Shown: positions 1-11,659 of the stretch, piece after piece | Layout: each line of letters starts with the position of its first letter | Position numbering within the stretch: position 1 is the stretch's first letter | Virus genome (UHGV): UHGV-1582668 | Origin: a virus | Direction: 5' to 3' (one strand) | DNA length: 11,659 bases | Notes under the pieces: model-generated | The model's database searches: none | The model's input: only the letters and a program-made list of their open reading frames with translations | What the model was told of the DNA's origin: nothing | Translations under genes and position numbers: made by a program

Positions 1-139
1 CAATCGACGATTGCTGGAAAGGCTGGGCCATACTCCTCCGGCAGAAGCAGAAAAAGCTTATTATGCTTCCATCGGAAACGATGATCTGGCAGCCTGAGTT
101 CACAGATAAAATACTCTCCAGGAAACCCGGGGCGGTTCA
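1..139 (+). mobile_element. 3' terminal fragment of an IS3-family insertion sequence (IS629/IS1203-like): last 31 codons of the transposase (2..97) plus the right terminal inverted repeat ending ...CCCGGGGCGGTTCA at 139; the rest of the element lies left of the window
   Basis: Frame starting at nt 2 translates to NRRLLERLGHTPPAEAEKAYYASIGNDDLAA followed by TGA at 95-97, a typical C-terminus of IS3-family OrfB/InsF-type transposases. The segment ends in ...TCA, matching the 5'-TG...CA-3' termini of IS3-family elements. Positions 1-139 are the exact reverse complement of 11521-11659. Assignment to IS629 specifically is from memory and unverified. Confidence 0.8.
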
Positions 140-163
140 AATGCCTGGTCAGCAACGCAGGAT

Positions 164-2284
164 ATGCGTGAGCAGATTATTGAGGCTCAGCGTTTCGTCC
201 GGGTGTCCGGCGCACAGTGGGAAGGCAGCACAAACGCTGGTTACTCATTTGATGAAGGCAGGTTTGAGCATTATCCGCGTTTTGAACTGAATAAGATTTC
301 CCGTGAATGTGATCGCATCATTGGCGAGTATCGACAGAATCGCATCAGCGTTAAATTCAGGCCGAAGGATGACAAGGCATCGGAAGCTTTAGCCGAAAAA
401 ATGAACGGCAAATTCCGCGCTGACTATCAGGAAACATCCGGTGGCGAAGCGTGTGATAACGCATTTGATGATGCCGTAACGGGTGGATTCGGTTGTTTCC
501 GCATGTGTGCCGATTACGAAGATGAAATGGATCCGAGTAACGAGCAGCGCCGCATCAGCCTTCTTCCTGTTTACGACCCAGCGACATGCGTCTTCTTTGA
601 TCAGGACAGCAAGCAATATGACCGCTCTGATGCTATGTGGGCTATGGAAATGTTCTCCATGACGCCTAAAGCGTTCGAGGCTGAATACCCTGATTCCATC
701 GCGGCAAGCCTTTCTCGTGATGACACTGGCACTCAATATGACTGGTCAACGCCAGATGCCATCTATGTTGGACGTTACTACGAAGTCCGCATAGAGAAGG
801 TGAAGCTCACGGCGTGGCGCAACCCTGTTAGCGGAGAAACGGCAATCTATGATGAAGATCAAATCAAAGATATTGTCGACGAGCTAACCGATGGCGCATT
901 CGAACTGATTGGTGAGCGAACGGTGAAGAAACGCCGCGTTTATTGCGGCCTTCTGTCTGGCGCTGAATGGCTGGAAGAACCGAAGCGTATTCCGGGCGAA
1001 CATATTCCACTCATCCCGGTATATGGGCGTCGCTCATTTGTTGATAATCAGGAGCGAATCGAAGGCCACGCAGCAAAAGCGATGGATGCACAGCGTCTTG
1101 AGAACCTGATGGTTTCCATGATTGCAGATAACGCCACTCAGGCTGGCGGTGATGGCATTCCTATCGTGGATGTTGATTTCATTCCCGGCCCATTAATGAA
1201 TCACTGGGCAGAGAGGAATAAGAAAAGACCTGCAGTTCTTCCTATGACCAGCAAGAAGGACAAAAACGGAACAGTCATTTCAGAAGCTCAGGTTGCTGGC
1301 TGGACACCTCCGACACAAATGCCGCCAGCTCTTGCCGGGCTATTGCAGTACACCGGAACGGCTATTCAGCAAATTACAGGTGCGTCGCAGCTTGAGAACA
1401 TGCCGAGCAACGTCGCTACCGATACCGTTGATAGCATCTTTAACCGGATGGACACGCAGTCCTATATCTACATGGACAACATGGCTAAATCCATGCGCCG
1501 TGCTGGCGTCGTGTGGCTTTCTATGGCTCGTGAAGTCTATGGCAGCGATACGCCAATGCGCATCGTTAATGAGGATGGCAGCGATGACGTGGCGCTGATG
1601 ACTGGTGAAGTGGTTGACCGTCAGACAGGGCAGGTTATCGCGCTTAACGACCTTTCGCAGGGTAACTATGAAGTGACTGTCGATGTCGGTCAGTCGTTCG
1701 CTACTCGCCGTGACGCAACGGTTAAGTCGTTACTTTCCATGCTGGCACTTATCCCGCCCGGAACGCCGAAACACGACCTTGTATCGTCGATGATCCTCGA
1801 CAATATGGACGGCGAAGGGATGGACGACCTTAAAGAATACAACCGCAATCAGTTGCTTCTGTCTGGAGTTATCAAGCCGAGAACGCCAGAAGAACAGCAG
1901 ATGGTTGAGCAGGCGAAACAACAACAGGCCAGTCAGCCAGATCCGGCTATGGTTGCTGCGCAAGGTCAGCTTCTTGCTGGTCAGGCTGAATTGCAGAAAG
2001 CGCAGAACGAGCAGGCAGCCATTCAGGTTAAAGCATTCCAGGCACAGACTGATGCTCAGGTTGCAGCGGCAAATGTTGTGAAAATCCTCGCATCTGCCGA
2101 TAGCCAGCAGAAATCTGATATCCGCGAGGCTCTGAAACTGCTCGGACAGTTCCAGCAACAGCAAGGAGACAATGCCCGTGCTGATGCAGAGCTTGTCCTG
2201 AAAAGTCAGGCACAGGGCCATGCGCAGCGCATGGACATCAGCAGCATCCTGCAAAAATCAACTCAGCAACAACCACAGCAGTAA
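164..2284 (+). CDS. Portal protein, P22 gp1 family, 706 aa from the first ATG; appears 5'-truncated by the IS junction at 139/140
   Basis: Long ORF at the expected position upstream of scaffold and coat. Translation shows motifs recalled from P22 portal (FRPKDD, ADYED, KKRRVY, GEHIPLIPVYG) and a Gln/Ala-rich C-terminal tail consistent with the portal barrel. Phage-derived sequence in this frame is open from nt 140 with no ATG or Shine-Dalgarno before 164; by offset against P22 gp1 roughly 13-20 N-terminal codons are missing. Confidence 0.88.
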   Translation: MREQIIEAQRFVRVSGAQWEGSTNAGYSFDEGRFEHYPRFELNKISRECDRIIGEYRQNRISVKFRPKDDKASEALAEKMNGKFRADYQETSGGEACDNAFDDAVTGGFGCFRMCADYEDEMDPSNEQRRISLLPVYDPATCVFFDQDSKQYDRSDAMWAMEMFSMTPKAFEAEYPDSIAASLSRDDTGTQYDWSTPDAIYVGRYYEVRIEKVKLTAWRNPVSGETAIYDEDQIKDIVDELTDGAFELIGERTVKKRRVYCGLLSGAEWLEEPKRIPGEHIPLIPVYGRRSFVDNQERIEGHAAKAMDAQRLENLMVSMIADNATQAGGDGIPIVDVDFIPGPLMNHWAERNKKRPAVLPMTSKKDKNGTVISEAQVAGWTPPTQMPPALAGLLQYTGTAIQQITGASQLENMPSNVATDTVDSIFNRMDTQSYIYMDNMAKSMRRAGVVWLSMAREVYGSDTPMRIVNEDGSDDVALMTGEVVDRQTGQVIALNDLSQGNYEVTVDVGQSFATRRDATVKSLLSMLALIPPGTPKHDLVSSMILDNMDGEGMDDLKEYNRNQLLLSGVIKPRTPEEQQMVEQAKQQQASQPDPAMVAAQGQLLAGQAELQKAQNEQAAIQVKAFQAQTDAQVAAANVVKILASADSQQKSDIREALKLLGQFQQQQGDNARADAELVLKSQAQGHAQRMDISSILQKSTQQQPQQ

Positions 2285-2374
2285 TTAACCCATAACGTGC
2301 AATGGCTGTCTTTATGAGGCCTGGCACCCTATTGCCTTCCGATGGGCTGAACATCGAGTAAACAGGGGTAACAA

Positions 2375-3268
2375 ATGGACCAGATGGCAGAAAACACACC
2401 AGAAGTTGAAATCGAAACCGACGCGTCAGAGCAGATTCCTGATGATGTCGAACTGGCTGAAAAAGTCGAAACAGAAGATGGCAGTGAGTCCTCAGGCAAT
2501 GATGCAGAGGAGGCTACTGAAACTGATGACGACGAATCAGAACAGGAATTCTACTTTGGTGACGAAAAGCTGGATTCGCCAACCAGCGAAGATGGCGCTG
2601 AGCATGGACTGGTAAAACACCTGCGCAAGACGATTAAAGAGAAAGACCGCGAGCTGAAAGAGCTGATGCGTCAGTCTCAGAAACCCGTCGAGCAGCAGCC
2701 GGTAATCACTCAACCACCGCGAATGCCAAAACTGGATGATGAGGACATCGGTTTCGATGAAGAAATCTACCAGCAACGCATGGCTAAGTGGGCAGAGGAT
2801 AATGGCAAGTACCAGCAACAGGAGATGGCTCGCAAGCAGAAGGAGCAGGAGCTTCAGGCTGCCTATCAAGAGCGATTATCCAAATATCAGCAACGTGTTA
2901 AGGCTCTCAAAGTTCCTGGCTATCAGGAAGCTGAGCAGGCCGTACTCGAGGAAATCCCCATCGAGACACAAAACGCGATCCTGTTTGAGTCAGAGAAGCC
3001 GGAAATCGTTGTTCTGGCGCTTGGTCGCAACGCTGAACTGCGCAAGCAACTGGCAGAAGCTACCAACCCCGTAGCAATTGGTCGTCTGCTGGAACGTATC
3101 GAATCGAAGGCCAGAATCATGCCAAAAGCAAAAACCACGGCAGCCACAACCCCGACGGTTAAGGGGAGCAACGGCGCAGTAATCAACAACCTCGACAAAT
3201 TGAAAGCCAAGGCGCTGGAAACTGGTGACTGGACGCCGTATTTCGCCGCTAAAAAGGCAAAAAAATAA
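2375..3268 (+). CDS. Scaffolding protein, P22 gp8-like, 297 aa
   Basis: Sits between portal and coat; size close to P22 gp8 (303 aa as recalled). Strongly acidic N-terminal third, charged and coiled-coil-like middle, basic C-terminus ending ...KKAKK as expected for a coat-binding helix-turn-helix. Shine-Dalgarno AGGGG 5 nt upstream of the ATG. Confidence 0.8.
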   Translation: MDQMAENTPEVEIETDASEQIPDDVELAEKVETEDGSESSGNDAEEATETDDDESEQEFYFGDEKLDSPTSEDGAEHGLVKHLRKTIKEKDRELKELMRQSQKPVEQQPVITQPPRMPKLDDEDIGFDEEIYQQRMAKWAEDNGKYQQQEMARKQKEQELQAAYQERLSKYQQRVKALKVPGYQEAEQAVLEEIPIETQNAILFESEKPEIVVLALGRNAELRKQLAEATNPVAIGRLLERIESKARIMPKAKTTAATTPTVKGSNGAVINNLDKLKAKALETGDWTPYFAAKKAKK

Positions 3269-3286
3269 CCTATTGGAGCATTAAGC

Positions 3287-4540
3287 ATGGCTAACCAATT
3301 AGCAAAAGACCTTGAAATCATGTTCGAAAACTACGTTGAAGGCTTTGAGGCCGCCTGCGTAGTTTCCCGTAACGCTAAAAAATTCCGTCCCGGTGATACA
3401 GCAATGCAGCGAGCAGGTGATGTTCTGTATCGTCCGCAGCATTACCACATGAATATTGAGGAAGGCCTCGACCTCAGCAGCAAAACGCCAACAGCACTGG
3501 TTCAGCGCCTTGTTCCTTCAGTGTTCAAGGAGCCGAAAAACATTCTGTACACTCTGGATGCGCGTGAAATGCGTGATCCGGAACATAAAACTGAAGCTGG
3601 TCGCGCCGCAGGTATGCGCCTTGCTGCACAGATTGACTCTGACCTGATTTCCATGGTCACGCAGCGTGCTACTAACGTGATCACGATGGCTGACTCAACC
3701 GCAGGTACACAGGGCCGTGATTTGTGGAACTGTGCGGCAGGTATTGATGCCACCATGACGGCGATTGGTGTACCTCAGGGTATCAACCGTCGCTCTTTCT
3801 GGAACCCCTTCAACTACAAAGACCTTGCTGGCGAGCTTGGTCACCGTGCCTATGCTCAGGGCGCAACCCTGACAGCATACGAAAAAGCGCAAATCCCTCC
3901 GGTTGCGTCCTTCGATAGCTACAAGACCGATATTTCTGGTCGATTACCGAAAGGAAGCACTGAATCCTTGACAGTATCAGGCCAACCTGAACACAAGGTT
4001 GAAGCGAAAGATTCAAATGGTATGCCAGTTGATAACCGACAGGGGACTATTACGGTATCTGCATCTGGCTTGCAGGTTGGTGATGCGTTCACCATTGCCG
4101 GTGTGAATTCCGTACACCAGATCACAAAAGATACCACCGGTCAACCGCAGGTATTCCGTGTTCTGGCTGTTAGCGGAACTACCGTAACAATTTCTCCAAA
4201 GATTCTCCCTGTTGAAAATACTGATGTTGCGAGTCGTCCATATGCAAACGTCGATGCCAAACCGGCAGAATCAGCAGCAATCACCATTCTCAACAAGAAC
4301 GCAGCACCTGCTAACCTCTTCTGGGCTGATGGTTCTGTTGAGCTGATGTACGGCAAACTGGCATTCCCGACAGGTCAGGGTCCACAGGTAATGACAGCAA
4401 CCACCGAGCAGGGCGCTACGCTGATCATGTCTTATGCCTTCGACCACATCAAAGGCGTAACCACTGCTCGTTTCACCACTCTGTACGGTTGCTCTGTACT
4501 TGTTCCTGAATATACGGGCATCGTTATTGCCGGGCAGTAA
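3287..4540 (+). CDS. Major capsid (coat) protein, P22 gp5 family, 417 aa
   Basis: Position immediately after scaffold; size near P22 coat (430 aa as recalled). Segments alignable to recalled P22 coat motifs (AKKFRPGD...MQRAG; NLFWADGSVELMY versus P22 NVFWADDAIRIV). GGAG Shine-Dalgarno 8 nt upstream. Followed directly by a strong intrinsic terminator, typical of a highly expressed coat gene. Confidence 0.88.
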   Translation: MANQLAKDLEIMFENYVEGFEAACVVSRNAKKFRPGDTAMQRAGDVLYRPQHYHMNIEEGLDLSSKTPTALVQRLVPSVFKEPKNILYTLDAREMRDPEHKTEAGRAAGMRLAAQIDSDLISMVTQRATNVITMADSTAGTQGRDLWNCAAGIDATMTAIGVPQGINRRSFWNPFNYKDLAGELGHRAYAQGATLTAYEKAQIPPVASFDSYKTDISGRLPKGSTESLTVSGQPEHKVEAKDSNGMPVDNRQGTITVSASGLQVGDAFTIAGVNSVHQITKDTTGQPQVFRVLAVSGTTVTISPKILPVENTDVASRPYANVDAKPAESAAITILNKNAAPANLFWADGSVELMYGKLAFPTGQGPQVMTATTEQGATLIMSYAFDHIKGVTTARFTTLYGCSVLVPEYTGIVIAGQ

Positions 4541-4546
4541 TTTTGG

Positions 4547-4569
4547 TGGGGCTTCGGCCCCATTTTTAT
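4547..4569 (+). terminator. Rho-independent terminator or attenuator downstream of the coat gene
   Basis: Perfect 6-bp GC-rich stem TGGGGC (4547-4552) and GCCCCA (4557-4562) around a TTCG tetraloop, followed by TTTTTAT (4563-4569). Begins 7 nt after the coat stop codon. Confidence 0.75.
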
Positions 4570-4581
4570 TGGGAGAAGACA

Positions 4582-4770
4582 ATGGCACGAACAATGCTCT
4601 ATAAGCCTGGCAACATGATCACCTGTGGTCAGTTTGCTGTCGATTACGTCATTGTTGATGACGAAGAAGTTAAATCTCACCTGAAAAAAGGTTGGGTAAA
4701 AACTCCTGAAGAAACCGCAACGAAGCAAAAAGTGGCTAAGGCGGAAGAAGATGGCGAAAACGAAGGGTGA
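4582..4770 (+). CDS. Small hypothetical protein, 62 aa, in the coat-to-gp4 gap (conserved small-ORF position in P22-like phages)
   Basis: ATG at 4582 preceded by a strong Shine-Dalgarno GGGAGAAG at 4571-4578. The ORF track's start at 4543 is a TTG lying inside the terminator hairpin and is unlikely to be used. The 3' end overlaps the gp4-like start by 20 nt. Acidic C-terminus (AEEDGENEG). Function unknown. Confidence 0.5.
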   Translation: MARTMLYKPGNMITCGQFAVDYVIVDDEEVKSHLKKGWVKTPEETATKQKVAKAEEDGENEG

Positions 4771-5212
4771 TCTCGTTCTAAAGGCTTTACGAAAAGCCGG
4801 GCTGTATTCCAATGCCACGTTGACAGATGCTGACCCTCAGGCAATTGAAGATGCCATTAATGACCTCGAAGACATGATGGCAGCATGGCAGGCTAAAGGT
4901 ATCGAGCTTGGATATCAGTTTGCTGATACAGAAAACGGCATCATGCCGTTACCTGACGATGATTCAGGTATCCCTGCATGGGCAAATGATGGCGTCGCTT
5001 TGAAACTCGCTGTGCAAGTGTGCATGGATAACGTCATTCAGCCGTCAGACGCTCTCCTTACCGCTGCTGACAGTGCATATCAGACAATCTGTATCGCTTT
5101 AACCAAAATACCACCACTTGAGCGGCGAAATGACATGCCTCGCGGTAGTGGTAACAAAAGCGCGTTTACGTGGAATCGGTTTTACATCGAGAAAGATGAT
5201 CCGAGTACGTGA
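4751..5212 (+). CDS. Tail accessory / head completion protein, P22 gp4-like, 153 aa
   Basis: Position and size match P22 gp4 (166 aa as recalled). N-terminus MAKTKGDLVLKALRKAGL...ATLTD resembles recalled P22 gp4 (KTKGDLVRAALRKLG...ATLTD); also a shared PRGSGN-type motif near the C-terminus. Shine-Dalgarno GGAAGAAG upstream. Confidence 0.8.
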   Translation: MAKTKGDLVLKALRKAGLYSNATLTDADPQAIEDAINDLEDMMAAWQAKGIELGYQFADTENGIMPLPDDDSGIPAWANDGVALKLAVQVCMDNVIQPSDALLTAADSAYQTICIALTKIPPLERRNDMPRGSGNKSAFTWNRFYIEKDDPST

Positions 5213-5221
5213 GGTGAATAA

Positions 5222-6640
5222 ATGCCGATTCAGCAACTTCCGCTTATGAAAGGTGTCGGCAAAGACTTTAGAAACGCCGACTATATCGACTATCTGCCAG
5301 TGAATATGTTGGCTACACCCAAAGAAATCCTTAACAGCAGCGGATATCTTCGCTCATTCCCGGGCATTGCCAAACGCTCTGATGTAAACGGTGTATCGCG
5401 CGGAGTTGAGTACAACATGGCGCAGAATGCTGTTTATCGCGTGTGTGGCGGCAAGCTGTACAAAGGAGAAAGTGAAGTCGGTGATGTTGCCGGAAGTGGT
5501 CGTGTATCAATGGCGCATGGTCGAACATCTCAGGCTGTAGGCGTTAATGGTCAACTGGTTGAGTATCGCTATGATGGCACGGTTAAAACCGTCTCAAACT
5601 GGCCTGCAGACAGCGGATTTACGCAGTATGAGTTAGGTTCAGTCCGCGACATTACACGCTTACGTGGGCGTTATGCGTGGTCAAAAGACGGCACGGATTC
5701 ATGGTTTATTACTGACCCTGAAGACGAATCGCACCCTGACCGATACAGCGCACAATATCGCGCAGAATCGCAGCCTGACGGCATTATCGGCATCGGAACA
5801 TGGCGAGACTTCATTGTCTGCTTTGGTTCATCAACGATTGAATATTTCTCCATGACTGGTGCAACCACTGTTGGTGCCGCTTTGTATGTCGCACAGCCAT
5901 CGCTGATGGTGCAGAAAGGTATTGCCGGGACTTACTGCAAAACGCCGTTTGCTGATTCGTATGCGTTCATCAGCAATCCGGCAACAGGCGCGCCTTCTGT
6001 ATACATCATCGGCTCCGGTCAGGTATCACCAATAGCCAGCGCGAGCATTGAGAAAATCCTCCGCTCCTACACTGCTGATGAACTGGCTGATGGCGTGATG
6101 GAATCGTTGCGGTTTGATGCTCATGAGTTGCTGATTATTCACCTGCCGCGCCACGTCCTCGTGTACGACGCATCTTCAAGCGCCAATGGTCCGCAATGGT
6201 GTGTACTGAAAACAGGCCTGTATGACGATGTGTACCGCGCTATCGACTTCATTTACGAAGGCAACCAAATTACGTGCGGCGATAAGCTTGAATCGATGAC
6301 AGGGAAATTGCAGTTCGATATCAGCAGCCAGTACGACAGGCAACAGGAACACCTGCTGTTTACTCCGTTGTTCAAAGCGGATAACGCCAGAGTTTTCGAC
6401 CTTGAGGTTGAGTCGTCAACTGGCGTTGCGCAGTATGCTGACCGCCTTTTTCTCTCTGCAACCACTGACGGCATCAATTACGGGCGTGAGCAGATGATTG
6501 AGCAGAATGAACCGTTCGTTTACGACAAACGTGTTTTGTGGAAGCGAGTAGGGCGCATCAGGAAAAATGTCGGCTTCAAATTGCGCGTTATCACGAAGTC
6601 ACCTGTCACTCTGTCTGGTTGCCAGATAAGGATTGAGTAA
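5222..6640 (+). CDS. Tail hub / packaged-DNA stabilization protein, P22 gp10-like, 472 aa
   Basis: Same length as P22 gp10 as recalled and the same position after gp4. N-terminus MPIQQLP... as recalled for P22 gp10. Shine-Dalgarno GAGGTG 5 nt upstream. Stop overlaps the next start (TAATG). Confidence 0.85.
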
Positions 6641-7341
6641 TGGCTGATTCGAATCTCAATGAGCCGGTAACAATTCAGGCTACACGACTCGATACATCAA
6701 TCCTTCCACGCAATATATTCAGCCAGTCTTACCTGCTGTATGTCATTAATCAGGGGGCTGATGTCGGCGCAATTGCCGGGAAGGCAAATCAGGCTGGTCA
6801 GGGCGCTTACGATGCCCAGGTAAAAAACGATGAACAGGATGTCGAACTGGCTGATCACGACGCAAGAATCACCGCAAACACAAAAGCGATAAATCTACTT
6901 GAGGTCAGGTTAACAACTGCCGAAGGGAAGATAGTCGTACTGCGTAGCGATGTTGATTACTTGCTGGATGAGGTTATCGATATTCAGGCGCATCTGGTCA
7001 CTGTTGACCAAAGACTGGATGACGTAGAAAACGATGTCTCTGGCATTAAGAGTGATTACGTATCGAAAACCGTAACCGAATCGCAGTCTCTTGCGTCACC
7101 GCTGGATGTAAAAACATCATATTCAGTTGATGGAATTCAGGTTGTTGGAGCAAGAAATACCGGATGGACTGCAGCCACAGGTACACCTCTTCTTGGCTCA
7201 TTCAACGCTAACCAGTCATACACGGTCGGCACTACGTACACACAATCCGAAGTCGCGGCTCTCGCTACAGGTTTGCAGCAGGCGCGGCAGCGTATTCTGG
7301 CGATTGAAACGGCACTTAGATTACATGGGCTGATTGACTGA
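6640..7341 (+). CDS. Tail needle (cell-puncturing plug) protein, P22 gp26-like, 233 aa
   Basis: Same length as P22 gp26 as recalled. N-terminal region ([20 protein letters not shown]) followed by a heptad-repeat coiled-coil-like centre and C-terminus ...[20 protein letters not shown], matching the trimeric needle architecture. Translationally coupled on both sides (TAATG, TGATG). Confidence 0.85.
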
Positions 7342-7796
7342 TGATTACATTCAAACCAACGCGAAACATCGACCTGATAGAAGCCGTAGGAAATCACCAT
7401 GACATTATCGCCGGGAGCAACAACGGTGATGGATACGACTACAAACCTGAATGCCGTTACTTTGAGGTGAACGTGCACGGGCAGTTCGGCGGAATTGTTT
7501 ACTATCAGGAGATTCAGCCGCTAACCTTTGATTGCCACGCCATGTACCTGCCAGAGATTCGCGGCTTCAGCAAGGAAATCGGGCTGGCGTTCTGGCGATA
7601 CATTCTGACTAACACCACCGTTCAGTGCGTCACATCGTTCGCTGCACGCAAATTCCGCCACGGGCAGATGTACTGCGCAATGGTTGGCCTTAAGCGTGTA
7701 GGAACCATCAAGAAATACTTCAAAGGCGTGGATGACGTGACGTTTTACAGCGCCACACGCGAAGAACTAATCGACTTCCTGAATCACGGGAGATAG
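7341..7796 (+). CDS. Hypothetical protein at the P22 gene 14 position (gp14-like head assembly / DNA-delivery accessory), 151 aa
   Basis: Located between the needle and the first ejection-protein gene, where gene 14 sits in P22. Start overlaps the needle stop (TGATG). Contains several Cys and His residues. Assignment rests on position only; I cannot confirm sequence similarity from memory. Confidence 0.5.
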   Translation: MITFKPTRNIDLIEAVGNHHDIIAGSNNGDGYDYKPECRYFEVNVHGQFGGIVYYQEIQPLTFDCHAMYLPEIRGFSKEIGLAFWRYILTNTTVQCVTSFAARKFRHGQMYCAMVGLKRVGTIKKYFKGVDDVTFYSATREELIDFLNHGR

Positions 7797-7798
7797 CC

Positions 7799-8488
7799 AT
7801 GTTATATGCATTTAAGCTGGGCAGAAAACTGCGCGGCGAGGAACCTTATTGCCCTGAAAAAGGCGGGAAAGGTGGCTCCGATAAAAGTGCAAAGTATGCC
7901 GCAGAAGCTCAGAAGTATGCCGCAGACCTGCAAAATCAGCAGTTCAACACCATCATGAATAACCTGAAGCCGTTTACTCCTCTGGCTGAGAAGTATGTCG
8001 GCAGCCTCGAGAACTTATCGTCTCTGGAGGGGCAAGGTCAGGCACTTAACCAGTATTACAACTCTCAGCAGTATAAAGACCTTGCAGGTCAGGCTCGCTA
8101 TCAGAGTCTGGCGGCAGCGGAAGCAACAGGTGGATTGGGTTCCACCTCAACCAGTAATCAGTTAGCAACAATCGCACCAACGCTTGGTCAGCAATGGCTA
8201 TCTGGACAAATGAACAACTACCAGAATCTGGCAAATATTGGTCTTGGCGCGCTTCAGGGGCAGGCAAATGCTGGGCAAACATATGCCAACAACATGAGCC
8301 AGATTTCACAGCAAAGCGCGGCTCTTGCAGCGGCAAACGCCAACAGACCATCAGCAATGCAATCTGCTATTGGCGGAGGTGCGTCTGGTGCCATTGCTGG
8401 GGCTGGACTTGCGAAATTAATTGGTTCATCAACTCCGTGGGGGGCTGCGATCGGCGGCGGTCTTGGTCTGCTTGGCTCGTTGTTTTAA
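7799..8488 (+). CDS. Ejection (DNA transfer / injection) protein, P22 gp7-like, 229 aa
   Basis: Same length as P22 gp7 as recalled; N-terminus MLYAFKLGRKLRGEE... matches my recollection of gp7. Gln/Asn/Ala-rich centre and a Gly/Ala-rich hydrophobic C-terminal tail (AIGGGASGAIAGAGLAKLIGSSTPWGAAIGGGLGLLGSLF). Shine-Dalgarno GGGAG upstream. Confidence 0.8.
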   Translation: MLYAFKLGRKLRGEEPYCPEKGGKGGSDKSAKYAAEAQKYAADLQNQQFNTIMNNLKPFTPLAEKYVGSLENLSSLEGQGQALNQYYNSQQYKDLAGQARYQSLAAAEATGGLGSTSTSNQLATIAPTLGQQWLSGQMNNYQNLANIGLGALQGQANAGQTYANNMSQISQQSAALAAANANRPSAMQSAIGGGASGAIAGAGLAKLIGSSTPWGAAIGGGLGLLGSLF

Positions 8489-8497
8489 GGGGTAATC

Positions 8498-9913
8498 ATG
8501 GCTACGTGGCAACAGGGTATTAATTCTGGTGGTTTTCTGGCTGGCATCGGTACGCAAAATGAGAATGCGCCAAAGGCAAGCGACATTAACGCAACGCTTG
8601 GTCTGATCCGCGAAAACAATGAACTGGCTCGCTCAGGTGCAAATAACATTGGTCTGACCGCGTTACGTGGTCTGGCTGGAGTTGCTGATATTTACAATCA
8701 GGAACAGCAACAGAAAGCTATTAGTGCGTTCAATAAGGTTCACGCTGATGCATGGGCTTCTGGTGATCCATCTGGACTATTTAAGTTTGCCCAGGAAAAT
8801 CCAGCGTTTGTTGCACAGGCACAACAGGCGTTTTCCGGTCTTAATGAGCAGCAACGCAACGATATGGGCGATTTAGCCATGAGGGCTAACGTCGCTCTTT
8901 CCCAGGGACCGGAAGCCTACAGTAAATTCATTACTGACAACAAGGACAGGTTAAATCGCGTGGGGGCGAATGCTGACTGGATGATTCAGACAGGTATCCA
9001 GAATCCAGAGCAGCTATCACACATGCTGACTACTATGTCTCTCGGTGCGCTTGGACCAGAAAAGGCGTTTGCTGTTCAGGACAAGATGGCTGGTCGTGAA
9101 ATTGACCGAGGCAAACTGGCAGAGACAATCCGCAGCAATCAGGCTGGAGAAGCACTTCAGGCGAGAGGGCAAAACCTTTCCTATCAGTCAGCAATGACTG
9201 GGCACAATATCGCAGCACAACGCTTGGCTCTGGATCAGCAAGAGTTCGGGTTTAAGATGCAGCAAGCGCAGGAAAAGGCTCAGCAGTTGATTAGTGAAGC
9301 ACCTAAGCTGTCAGTAAACATGGAAAAAGGCATCGAGACGGCTGTAAACAATGCCACAGCATCATCAAACTCAGCCAATTCTATGAGTGCGCTTGCTCAA
9401 CAGTTCAGAGCAGAAAAACCAACGACAGGTTTGTTCGGTAACGCACAGAACATGTTCGCAAAACTTACCGGAAGCGATACGACATTGCGTGATTTGCGCA
9501 TCCGCCAAAATGCCCTTGTTAACAGTCAGGTTCTTAAATTCCTACCTCCCGGCCCAGCAACGGATAAAGACGTTGAGATCGTTCGACAGGGTGCGCCAAC
9601 TGACATGGATAACCCTGAGACGGTCGCAAGATGGCTTGATGCAATGGCAAACCTTGAGCGACGAAACGCGCAGTTTAATGAGTTTAAAGCCGAGTGGATG
9701 AGCGCGAATGGCAACCCTGGACAATCGCGTAATGGCGGTCAGATATTGGGGTTGGATGTTAAAAAAGGTGAATCACTGGGGAGTGCCGTTAAGCGGTATA
9801 TGTCAATGAATACTGACGCAGCGCCAGCACAAGATTCGACACCTTCAGGAGAACCACGGAATCAGGTTGGATCATATACCTCAAAATCAGGCATTCAATT
9901 TACGGTGGAATGA
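8498..9913 (+). CDS. Ejection (DNA transfer) protein, P22 gp20-like, 471 aa
   Basis: Same length as P22 gp20 as recalled and in the conserved order gp7, gp20, gp16. Shine-Dalgarno AAGGGG upstream; stop overlaps the next start (ATGA). Confidence 0.75.
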
Positions 9914-11523
9914 TGAAAGTAACTGCAAACGGTAAGACATTTACCTTTCCTGATGGTACGAGCACCGAAGATATTGGGGCCGCCATTGATGAGTATTTTG
10001 CTGGTCAGGCTGTTCAGCAACAAACAGTTAATCAGGCCAATAATGCACCAACACGGGAAGAACCATCATTGATGCAACAAGCTGGCGATTGGCTCACAGG
10101 TGGTCAAAGTGCAGGGCAAATTGCAGAACAGGCTGGTCGTGGTCTGGTAAACATACCATTTGACGTATTGCAGGGTGGCGCAAGTCTGATTAATGCAATC
10201 AGTCAGGGGCTTGGTGGTCCAAAAGTATTGGATGATGTCTATCGTCCAGTCGATCGACCGACAGACCCTTATGCGCAAACTGGAGAAACAATTGGCGGGT
10301 ATTTAGTTCCAGGAGTTGGAACGGCAGGAAGCATGGCTATTGGATCACTGGCAGAGGCCGCAAATCAGAAAGGCGATTTCGCACAAAATGCAGCAAAAAA
10401 TGCCGGAGTTAACCTTGCCGCTCAGGGGGTTCTTTCCGCAGCAGCAAAGGGAATAGGGCGTGGAATAACGGCTATAAAAGGTGATATTGCGCCAGAAGTG
10501 GCGAAGAAAATTGCCACATCAGAATCGATGGGCGTGACACCAATGACATCTGATGTTATCCCGCCGAAAAATGCTTTCACTCGCGGCCTTACTCAGGATG
10601 CCGAGGGGGCTTTGCTCGGGACAGGTTCAAAGCGTGCGGAGCAATATGCAAAAAGAAGTCAGCTAGTTAAAAAACAGCTTGAGAAATATGGTGAATATAG
10701 CCCATCAGTTGTTGTTGACGATCTGTATGGTTCTCTGAAGTCAAGGAAGGATTCAGCTGGAAGCGTTATTGAAGACATTACAACTAAAATGGGAGATACA
10801 CCTGTTGACACATCAAAATCCATTAAGGTTATCGACAACGTGCTTACCAGGGCTAACAGGCTTGGGAAAGTGGCAAATAAGGATTTGATTCGCGGGCTAT
10901 CCGATTTGCGAGAAGAGCTTGCTAAACCAGATGTAGATTTTGGACTATTGAGAGAGTTGCGGTCAGCATTAAGGGAAAGTATTCAGGGAGATGCCATGGT
11001 TTTTCCTAATAGCGCGAAAGCCGCAACTGATGCCGTGGAGAGGGCAATGGGTTCAGATTTGAGGAATAACGCAGCACGGTATTTGGGGGCTGGAGAGGCT
11101 GCCAGATACGTCAAAGCAAACTCTGACTACTCCAACGTCTTCAATAAGGTTCTCAATAAAAGGATTGCGAACAATCTCAACAAAGCTAAAAAAGAGTTTA
11201 CTCCAGAGCTAATAAACAGCGTTGTATTCAGCAGAAAACCATCAGATATTAAGAGGATATGGCCTGCTCTTAGTGAAGATGGAAAGAACGCTATGCGTGC
11301 TGCTTATATTAGCAAGATTGCAGAAAAGGCAGGAGACTCGCCAACAAAATTTCTTACCGAGTTAAATAAGTTGAAGTCGCAATCTGACGGTCAGATATAT
11401 AACACGATATTCAGTGGGAGACACATGAAAGAGCTTGATGCTCTTCATGAAGTTCTACAGCAAACAGCAAGGTCAGACATCGCAAATGTTGTAACTCAGA
11501 CAGGGCAATCGCAAGCCAACTGA
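9910..11523 (+). CDS. Ejection (DNA transfer) protein, P22 gp16-like, 537 aa; apparently 3'-truncated, with its stop codon supplied by the first three bases of the flanking IS end
   Basis: Third gene of the conserved ejection-protein trio. ORF ends on TGA at 11521-11523, which is exactly the terminal TGA of the IS inverted repeat, so the reading frame runs straight into the IS. P22 gp16 is about 609 aa as recalled, implying roughly 70 C-terminal codons are missing. Confidence 0.7.
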
Positions 11524-11659
11524 ACCGCCCCGGGTTTCCTGGAGAGTATTTTATCTGTGAACTCAGGCTGCCAGATCATCGTTTCCGATGGAAGCATAAT
11601 AAGCTTTTTCTGCTTCTGCCGGAGGAGTATGGCCCAGCCTTTCCAGCAATCGTCGATTG
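11521..11659 (-). mobile_element. 3' terminal fragment of a second, inverted IS3-family insertion sequence copy (IS629/IS1203-like): transposase C-terminal 31 codons on the minus strand (11563..11658) plus terminal inverted repeat beginning TGAACCGCCCCGGG at 11521
   Basis: Exact reverse complement of positions 1-139 (139 of 139 nt). Same features as the left copy in the opposite orientation; the element body must lie right of the window. Confidence 0.8.

Follow-up and report, generated by a model that had tools for sequence, protein, structure and literature searches.

An IS629 insertion very probably truncates the portal gene of a P22-like Escherichia coli prophage

Insertion of IS629 into E. 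coli prophages has been described for O157:H7 (Sakai, EDL933) and for Stx phages. In O157:H7, 62% of the IS629 copies lie in prophages, and the target duplications are 3-4 bp long (PMC3271280). The locus analysed here shares with these cases the same element, a 100%-identical element end, a prophage gene as the target and the inactivation of that gene. It differs from the O157:H7 cases in the prophage, which is a P22-like Lederbergvirus of ExPEC/APEC-type strains and not a lambdoid Stx phage, and it differs from known IS629 insertions in that its allele is absent from 5,426 complete RefSeq E. coli genomes. The locus is also like the 'grounded' (defective) prophages inactivated by IS elements, in which essential morphogenesis genes are interrupted and the remainder is intact. 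Unlike an old grounded remnant, however, it shows no sign of long-term decay: the other 11.4 kb are free of mutations when compared with an intact prophage, and the grounding is very recent. Disruption of a prophage gene by IS629 is in itself an ordinary, already known event, and the components found here are known at 99.9-100% identity.

The window, that is, the whole stretch of DNA that was analysed (11,659 nt, UHGV-1582668), is the entire MEGAHIT contig ena:ERZ27234353:k141_191, and an exact-protein look-up retrieved an identical contig in three samples. Judged by its sequence, the window comes from an E. coli strain with a P22-like prophage that belongs to the genus Lederbergvirus and is of the CUS-3/phiv205-1 type. 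Its phage part (140-11520) aligns to the prophage of strain PA45B with 0 mismatches in 11,381 nt (100%, 11.4 kb), and the window is 98.7% identical to phiv205-1 over 6.1 kb. The sole differences from the PA45B prophage are the two IS junctions flanking 140-11520; since the phage part has no mismatch to this intact prophage, the IS events are very recent. The morphogenesis genes follow the P22 order (portal, scaffold, coat, gp4, gp10, gp26, gp14, gp7, gp20, gp16), and the head, neck and ejection genes at 2375-9913 are intact and P22-like. A scan of the window at the Rfam gathering threshold gave 0 matches. The features referred to below are as follows.

1-139, plus strand: assigned right (IRR) end of IS629, IS3 family, with the terminal ...GGTTCA reached at 139
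2-94, plus strand: last 31 codons of the transposase OrfB, with the stop TGA at 95-97
107-109, plus strand: TAA stop within the IS, in the portal frame (from the translations)
140-2284, plus strand: portal gene remnant, codons 19-732 and stop; 100% identity to phiv205-1 and PA45B begins exactly at 140
159-166, plus strand: AGGA (159-162), T and ATG164, the only available in-frame portal start, with the Shine-Dalgarno (SD)-like motif 1 nt upstream
164-2284, plus strand: longest translatable portal ORF, 706 aa, without residues 1-26 (ORF list; Pfam PF16510)
2375-3268, plus strand: scaffold gene (gene calls, Pfam families)
3287-4540, plus strand: coat gene (gene calls, Pfam families)
4582-4770, plus strand: 62-aa ORF (gene calls)
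4751-5212, plus strand: gp4-like gene (gene calls, Pfam families)
5222-6640, plus strand: gp10-like gene (gene calls, Pfam families)
6640-7341, plus strand: 233-aa ORF in the gp26 position (gene calls)
7341-7796, plus strand: DUF2824 gene (gene calls, Pfam families)
7799-8488, plus strand: gp7-like gene (gene calls, Pfam families)
8498-9913, plus strand: gp20-like gene (gene calls, Pfam families)
9910-11523, plus strand: gp16-like DNA-ejection gene, cut after codon 537 of about 609, with its stop from the IS terminus
11521-11659, minus strand: assigned second IS629 right (IRR) end, inverted, the exact reverse complement of 1-139

Bases 1-139 can be assigned to the right end of IS629 because they are identical at 139 of 139 positions (100%) to the last 139 bases (L010 1601-1739) of a complete 1310-bp element from E. 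coli 4/2-1 (L010 430-1739), which is itself 99.9% identical over its full span to features annotated as 'IS3 family IS629' in Stx-phage records, including LC567824.1. This reference element is flanked by a 3-bp CTG duplication on each side, starts with TGAACCGCCCCGGGAATCC and terminates in GGTTCA. Its annotation names an IS3-family transposase and a programmed frameshift, and its OrfB contains the rve and HTH_21 domains (Pfam). In the window, bases 1-139 close with ...CCCGGGGCGGTTCA, and the left IS629 end at base 139 reads ...GGGGCGGTTCA. The IS terminal sequence had no match in the literature, and the element was identified through the annotated phage records instead. Of each IS629 copy, 139 nt are present on the contig, and the full element with orfA, orfB and the frameshift is known from the reference copy only. 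OrfB is oriented in the same direction as the portal remnant and ends 42 nt before the junction; its stop TGA and the TAA at 107-109 are both in the portal frame. A transposase-portal fusion was considered and rejected: the frame is shared, but these two stops lie in between.

The intact portal allele, which is 100% identical to the remnant, is present in phiv205-1 and PA45B (L001/L002 3947-6145) and comprises 2199 nt encoding 732 aa. Base 140 of the window is base 4001 of that locus and base 55 of the intact coding sequence; exactly 54 nt (18 codons) are missing at the junction, together with the ATG and the terminase-coupled start region. In both phiv205-1 and PA45B, the portal ATG follows the terminase stop after a single nucleotide (GGT TGA T ATG). 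The first-pass annotation had described the portal frame as open from base 140, the first base after the IS, with an in-frame stop at 107-109 inside the IS and a first start at ATG164. All three points were borne out: the IS ends at 139 and identity to the intact phage sets in at the next base, a TAA occupies 107-109 in the portal frame, and there is no in-frame ATG, GTG or TTG between 110 and 163, which leaves the 706-aa ORF. The same annotation put the loss at 13-20 codons, which agrees with the DNA, from which 18 codons are gone, and falls short for the protein, any translatable product lacking 26 residues. ATG164 is codon 27 (Met27) of the intact gene; coding sequence for residues 1-18 is absent, and that for residues 19-26 lies ahead of the first usable start and cannot be translated.

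Over its full length (140-2284) the remnant is 100% identical in nucleotide sequence to the phiv205-1 portal gene and 95-96% identical to those of CUS-3 and Sf101, and bases 140-1200 are 100% identical to prophages in about 20 complete E. coli genomes, including PA45B, APEC IMT5155, BEN2908 and UPEC129. The portal protein matches the PF16510 profile with E=6.3e-166 (553.8 bits, cut-off 26.1). Compared with the phiv205-1, CUS-3 and Sf101 portals, however, the product of the window has 706 aa instead of 732 and is without positions 1-14 of that profile, and the allele lacks the complete N-terminus and the native initiation site of the family. Sequence comparison thus places it in the P22-like portal family as a truncated allele or pseudogene. 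We give the reading described here, a P22-like prophage whose portal gene is truncated by an IS629 insertion, a probability of roughly 0.9. Because the window is a whole contig that stops inside the IS, 'lost' may here mean displaced, and the terminase genes and the beginning of the portal gene could still be present on the other side of the element, 1.3 kb off.

The upstream residues belong to the portal protein as it is known from its relatives. The intact portal aligns with Sf6 gp3 from residue 7 onwards (chain residues 6-692, E=3.9e-249) and with P22 gp1 from residue 12 onwards (chain residues 10-717, E=1e-117) in the PDB, and these alignments take in the wing, stem, clip, crown and barrel. 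The Pfam family P22_portal (PF16510) is matched by the intact protein from profile position 2 and by the 706-aa product from position 15 only. In a tblastn search of 50,697 phage records with the first 118 portal residues, 74 records matched and 72 of them spanned at least 80% of the query; most of the 74 alignments begin at residues 1-10, including those of the distant APSE, Sodalis phiSG1, HK620 and Sf6. Full-length homologues starting at the equivalent of Met164 would have meant an IS placed just upstream of an intact gene; instead, Sf6 gp3, P22 gp1, the Pfam profile and most of the 74 homologues extend upstream of it. In P22 itself, mass spectrometry of the portal recovered residues 2-624 (PMC13386823), and disorder is limited to residues 1-5, the wing domain being formed by residues 6-319 and 417-524 (PMC12005531).

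The defect of this prophage is larger than the loss in the portal gene alone, because a second, inverted IS629 truncates gp16. The last 139 nt of the window are the exact reverse complement of the first 139 nt, so that both IRR ends face inward, and the stop codon of gp16 (TGA, 11521-11523) is supplied by the IS629 terminus. Intact gp16 in PA45B extends for another 219 nt, that is, 72 codons and the stop. Seven contigs, which come from several samples and different assemblers, carry the IS-terminated gp16 of 537 aa, and each of these contigs runs 28-55 nt into the IS.

One IS629 copy follows nt 54 of the portal gene, its right end toward the gene, and parts codons 1-18, together with the ATG and the terminase-coupled start site, from the other 714 codons. 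A second, inverted copy follows codon 537 of gp16 and gives this gene its stop codon. The portal remnant can start only at Met27 (ATG164), which has no promoter of its own and lies behind two in-frame IS stops. The most likely history would be that IS629 inserted twice, recently and by simple insertion, so that the missing gene ends lie just past each IS. That both events were simple insertions, with the missing ends directly beyond the IS copies, is reasonably probable. Simple insertion predicts target duplications of AAT (140-142) and AAC (11518-11520). To the left of the left IS copy it predicts ...CAACTTTGAT(AAT) and the terminase, with an outer junction at which ...GTGCAACTTTGATAAT is joined to TGAACCGCCCCGGGAATCC at the IS629 left end (IRL); on the right, GGATTCCCGGGGCGGTTCA would be joined to AACAGGATAAGGACG, again at the IS629 left end (IRL).

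An IS-mediated rearrangement is unlikely to have produced this arrangement, though it is the most probable of the alternatives. DNA may have been deleted, or a segment inverted when IS629 copies recombined or transposed within the molecule. In that event the left IS would be bordered by something other than the portal 5' end and the terminase, leaving the 11.4-kb block as a prophage remnant that is isolated or inverted. At both inner junctions it is the IRR end of the element that meets the phage DNA, in opposite orientations, and an intramolecular event of the inversion type gives the same geometry; a deletion between IS copies, too, would produce inner junctions like these. Rearranged IS629 junctions are moreover common, as only 21 of 47 IS629 sites in O157:H7, fewer than half, have kept intact target duplications (PMC3271280), and no outer junction was found in the collections scanned. 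On the other hand, the absence of any mismatch between the phage block and the intact prophage argues for very recent events, and in one scaffold (L004) the terminase and the beginning of the portal gene are joined to the 3' part of that gene over a gap at the insertion site. The single N run of this scaffold (3392-3401) stands for 15 nt centred on that site, which is a hint of a simple insertion, or of a mixture of alleles, in the sample from which L004 came.

The searches for junctions were as follows. With megablast against 5,426 complete RefSeq E. coli genomes, both junction regions retrieved only intact alleles, with matches ending at 140 and 11520. Both inner junctions had 0 exact matches in the GTDB representative genomes and in IMG/VR, and the left one had 0 in the JGI metagenomes. 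The predicted outer junctions, with a duplication of 0-8 nt allowed, likewise gave 0 matches in IMG/VR (both junctions) and in the JGI metagenomes (left junction only). The ORF predicted across the outer right junction retrieved no IS629-gp16 fusion in a search of 5.8 billion proteins; the matches were either usual C-terminal pieces of gp16 or ORFs, unrelated to it, that run out of the IS629 left end. This negative has little weight, as gene callers would probably begin such an ORF downstream of the IS, at an internal ATG. Exact-protein look-ups for sequence spanning either IS copy gave only contigs of at most 20 kb, all of which break in the IS. The negative results for the outer junctions do not discriminate between the histories, the collections scanned being without the inner junctions as well.

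It is improbable that the portal lesion alone would be harmless, that is, that a portal protein starting at Met27 is made through read-through from the IS629 transposase and weak initiation at ATG164 and then forms working rings. The orientation of OrfB, which ends 42 nt short of the junction, would suit such read-through, and the plus strand has no terminator-like site there. No sigma-70-like promoter was found in bases 1-500, and so no outward promoter at the IS end; transcription of the remnant would therefore need read-through from the IS. As to initiation, ATG164 had been described as having no convincing SD and only an AGGA 1 nt upstream, and the sequence reads accordingly, with AGGA at 159-162 followed by T and the ATG. 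The predicted anti-SD duplex at this site (-4.1 kcal/mol) ends next to the ATG and is about as stable as that at the native start (-3.9 kcal/mol), while the downstream late genes pair at -5.6 to -7.5 kcal/mol. A spacing of 1 nt between SD and ATG is, however, far under the functional range. The claim that the ribosome-binding site was lost holds only in part, since the native SD is weak too; what has gone is the proper spacing and the coupling to the terminase stop (TGA-T-ATG). From this arrangement we infer that the native portal start probably relies on coupling to terminase translation, and any Met27 product would probably be scarce.

Such a product, by analogy with P22, would also be short of the first 20 or so ordered residues of the wing domain. 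Residues 1-5 of the P22 portal are disordered, a point in favour of a working product, but residues 6-25 are an ordered part of the wing (PMC12005531), a domain in which even small changes upset portal ring formation and incorporation (PMC13386823). The N-terminal segment is conserved in distant homologues as well, and gp16 is truncated in the same prophage. Since portal and gp16 are both interrupted, no infectious particles are to be expected from this prophage, and the second IS629 in gp16 strengthens that expectation.

An assembly artefact, in which a de Bruijn assembler made a chimeric IS-portal join at a repeat and the real gene is intact, is very improbable. The name k141_191, which we take to denote k=141, makes the 139-nt IS arms equal to k-2, and read in this way the contig stops on both sides where the assembler met the IS repeat. 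This is the observation that favours an artefact. At k=141, however, every k-mer that spans the junction must be present in the reads. The left junction, furthermore, coincides to the base with the end of IS629; SPAdes and Logan assemblies of other samples contain the right junction as well, and scaffold L004 is broken at the portal insertion site. Both inner IS junctions are real, given that the same contig occurs in three samples and that the IS-terminated gp16 is found on seven contigs from different assemblers. A contig with a reverse-complementary repeat of about size k at both ends should be regarded as bounded by the assembler, and 'missing' neighbour genes are not inferable from such a contig.

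There is similarly little reason to believe that the IS629-bracketed 11.4-kb block is a mobile composite unit, or that a selected, host-beneficial 'grounding' of the prophage retains the block for use by the host. Two inverted IS629 copies do bracket an 11,381-bp segment, as in a composite transposon, but neither a second location in the collections searched nor an outer target duplication was found, and the cargo consists of two gene fragments and phage structural genes, which is what two independent IS hits in one prophage would leave. Apart from the inverted arrangement of the IS copies and the fact that the allele recurs in several samples, nothing points to a composite unit or to selected grounding.

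Finally, an IS629 lying just upstream of an intact portal gene whose true start is Met164 can be dismissed as extremely improbable, because the homologues and the Pfam profile reach upstream of Met27, the first 26 residues having counterparts in the portals of Sf6 and P22, in the profile and in most homologues; annotation gives the intact allele 732 aa, P22 portal peptides begin at residue 2 (PMC13386823), and the identical 706-aa product called on two contigs with an upstream terminase gene (L004 and L005) is caused by the N gap in L004 and by a TAG at Trp21 in L005, not by natural starts. The 706-aa 'portal protein' and the 537-aa 'gp16' reported by gene callers are products of IS-truncated pseudogenes and not natural variants. 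This prophage copy is to be scored as defective in annotation, beyond which the significance of the finding is small.

In the intact allele of the phiv205-1 locus (record MN340231; L001), the region that lies upstream of window position 140 places the native portal ATG 1 nt past the stop codon of the terminase large-subunit gene (TGA T ATG, L001 3943-3949). The Shine-Dalgarno match of this ATG is only a weak one, at -3.9 kcal/mol. Taken together, the TGA T ATG arrangement and the weak Shine-Dalgarno match suggest that the native portal start is translationally coupled to the terminase large subunit.

At the IS629 junction, the portal remnant and the IS629 OrfB share one reading frame (window 2-109), and a transposase-portal fusion is prevented solely because of two stop codons, TGA at 95-97 and TAA at 107-109. 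At the other end of the window, the gp16-like DNA-ejection gene, which begins at 9910, retains the first 537 of its roughly 609 codons before the inverted second IS629 copy cuts it off, and the TGA at 11521-11523, within the terminus of that copy, acts as the stop codon of the truncated gene. The resulting 537-aa product is present on 7 contigs from several samples.

The window is one whole MEGAHIT contig (k141_191), the ends of which (1-139 and 11521-11659) are exact reverse complements of 139 nt each (k-2); both of its boundaries are assembly breaks within the repeat rather than biological ends. Another 10.7-kb sequence, L004 (ERZ28568250 scaffold_335), has a single run of Ns, at 3392-3401. 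This run stands for 15 nt with the IS629 insertion site at their centre, and it connects the terminase gene and the portal 5' end with the 3' part of the portal gene. The position of the run and the portal parts that it joins suggest that the assembly of this scaffold was broken either by the same IS629 insertion or by a mixed population.

Two other contigs differ from the window. One (L006, ERZ857894 NODE_504) has the right IS junction in common with the window, while its first ~750 nt (1-750) are unlike the window and match a second locus of E. coli PA45B (4086144-4087113), annotated as a phage DNA ejection protein; this contig either arose by recombination between two P22-like prophages or is a chimera assembled at low coverage. 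The other (L005, ERZ28527921 NODE_3047, coverage 4.2) carries, at 5471-5490, a TGG>TAG change at Trp21 of an otherwise intact portal gene and a second substitution 8 nt beyond it, both at most 16 nt from the IS site of the window. These substitutions could be low-coverage sequencing errors or an independent lesion.

Two gene labels in record MN340231 are probably annotation errors. The coat gene (L001 7148-8401), named 'terminase small subunit' there, matches Pfam P22_CoatProtein and is annotated in PA45B as 'P22 phage major capsid protein family'. The 146-aa gene named 'HNH homing endonuclease' (L001 2093-2533) overlaps the large terminase gene at its start, where the small terminase gene is usually found.
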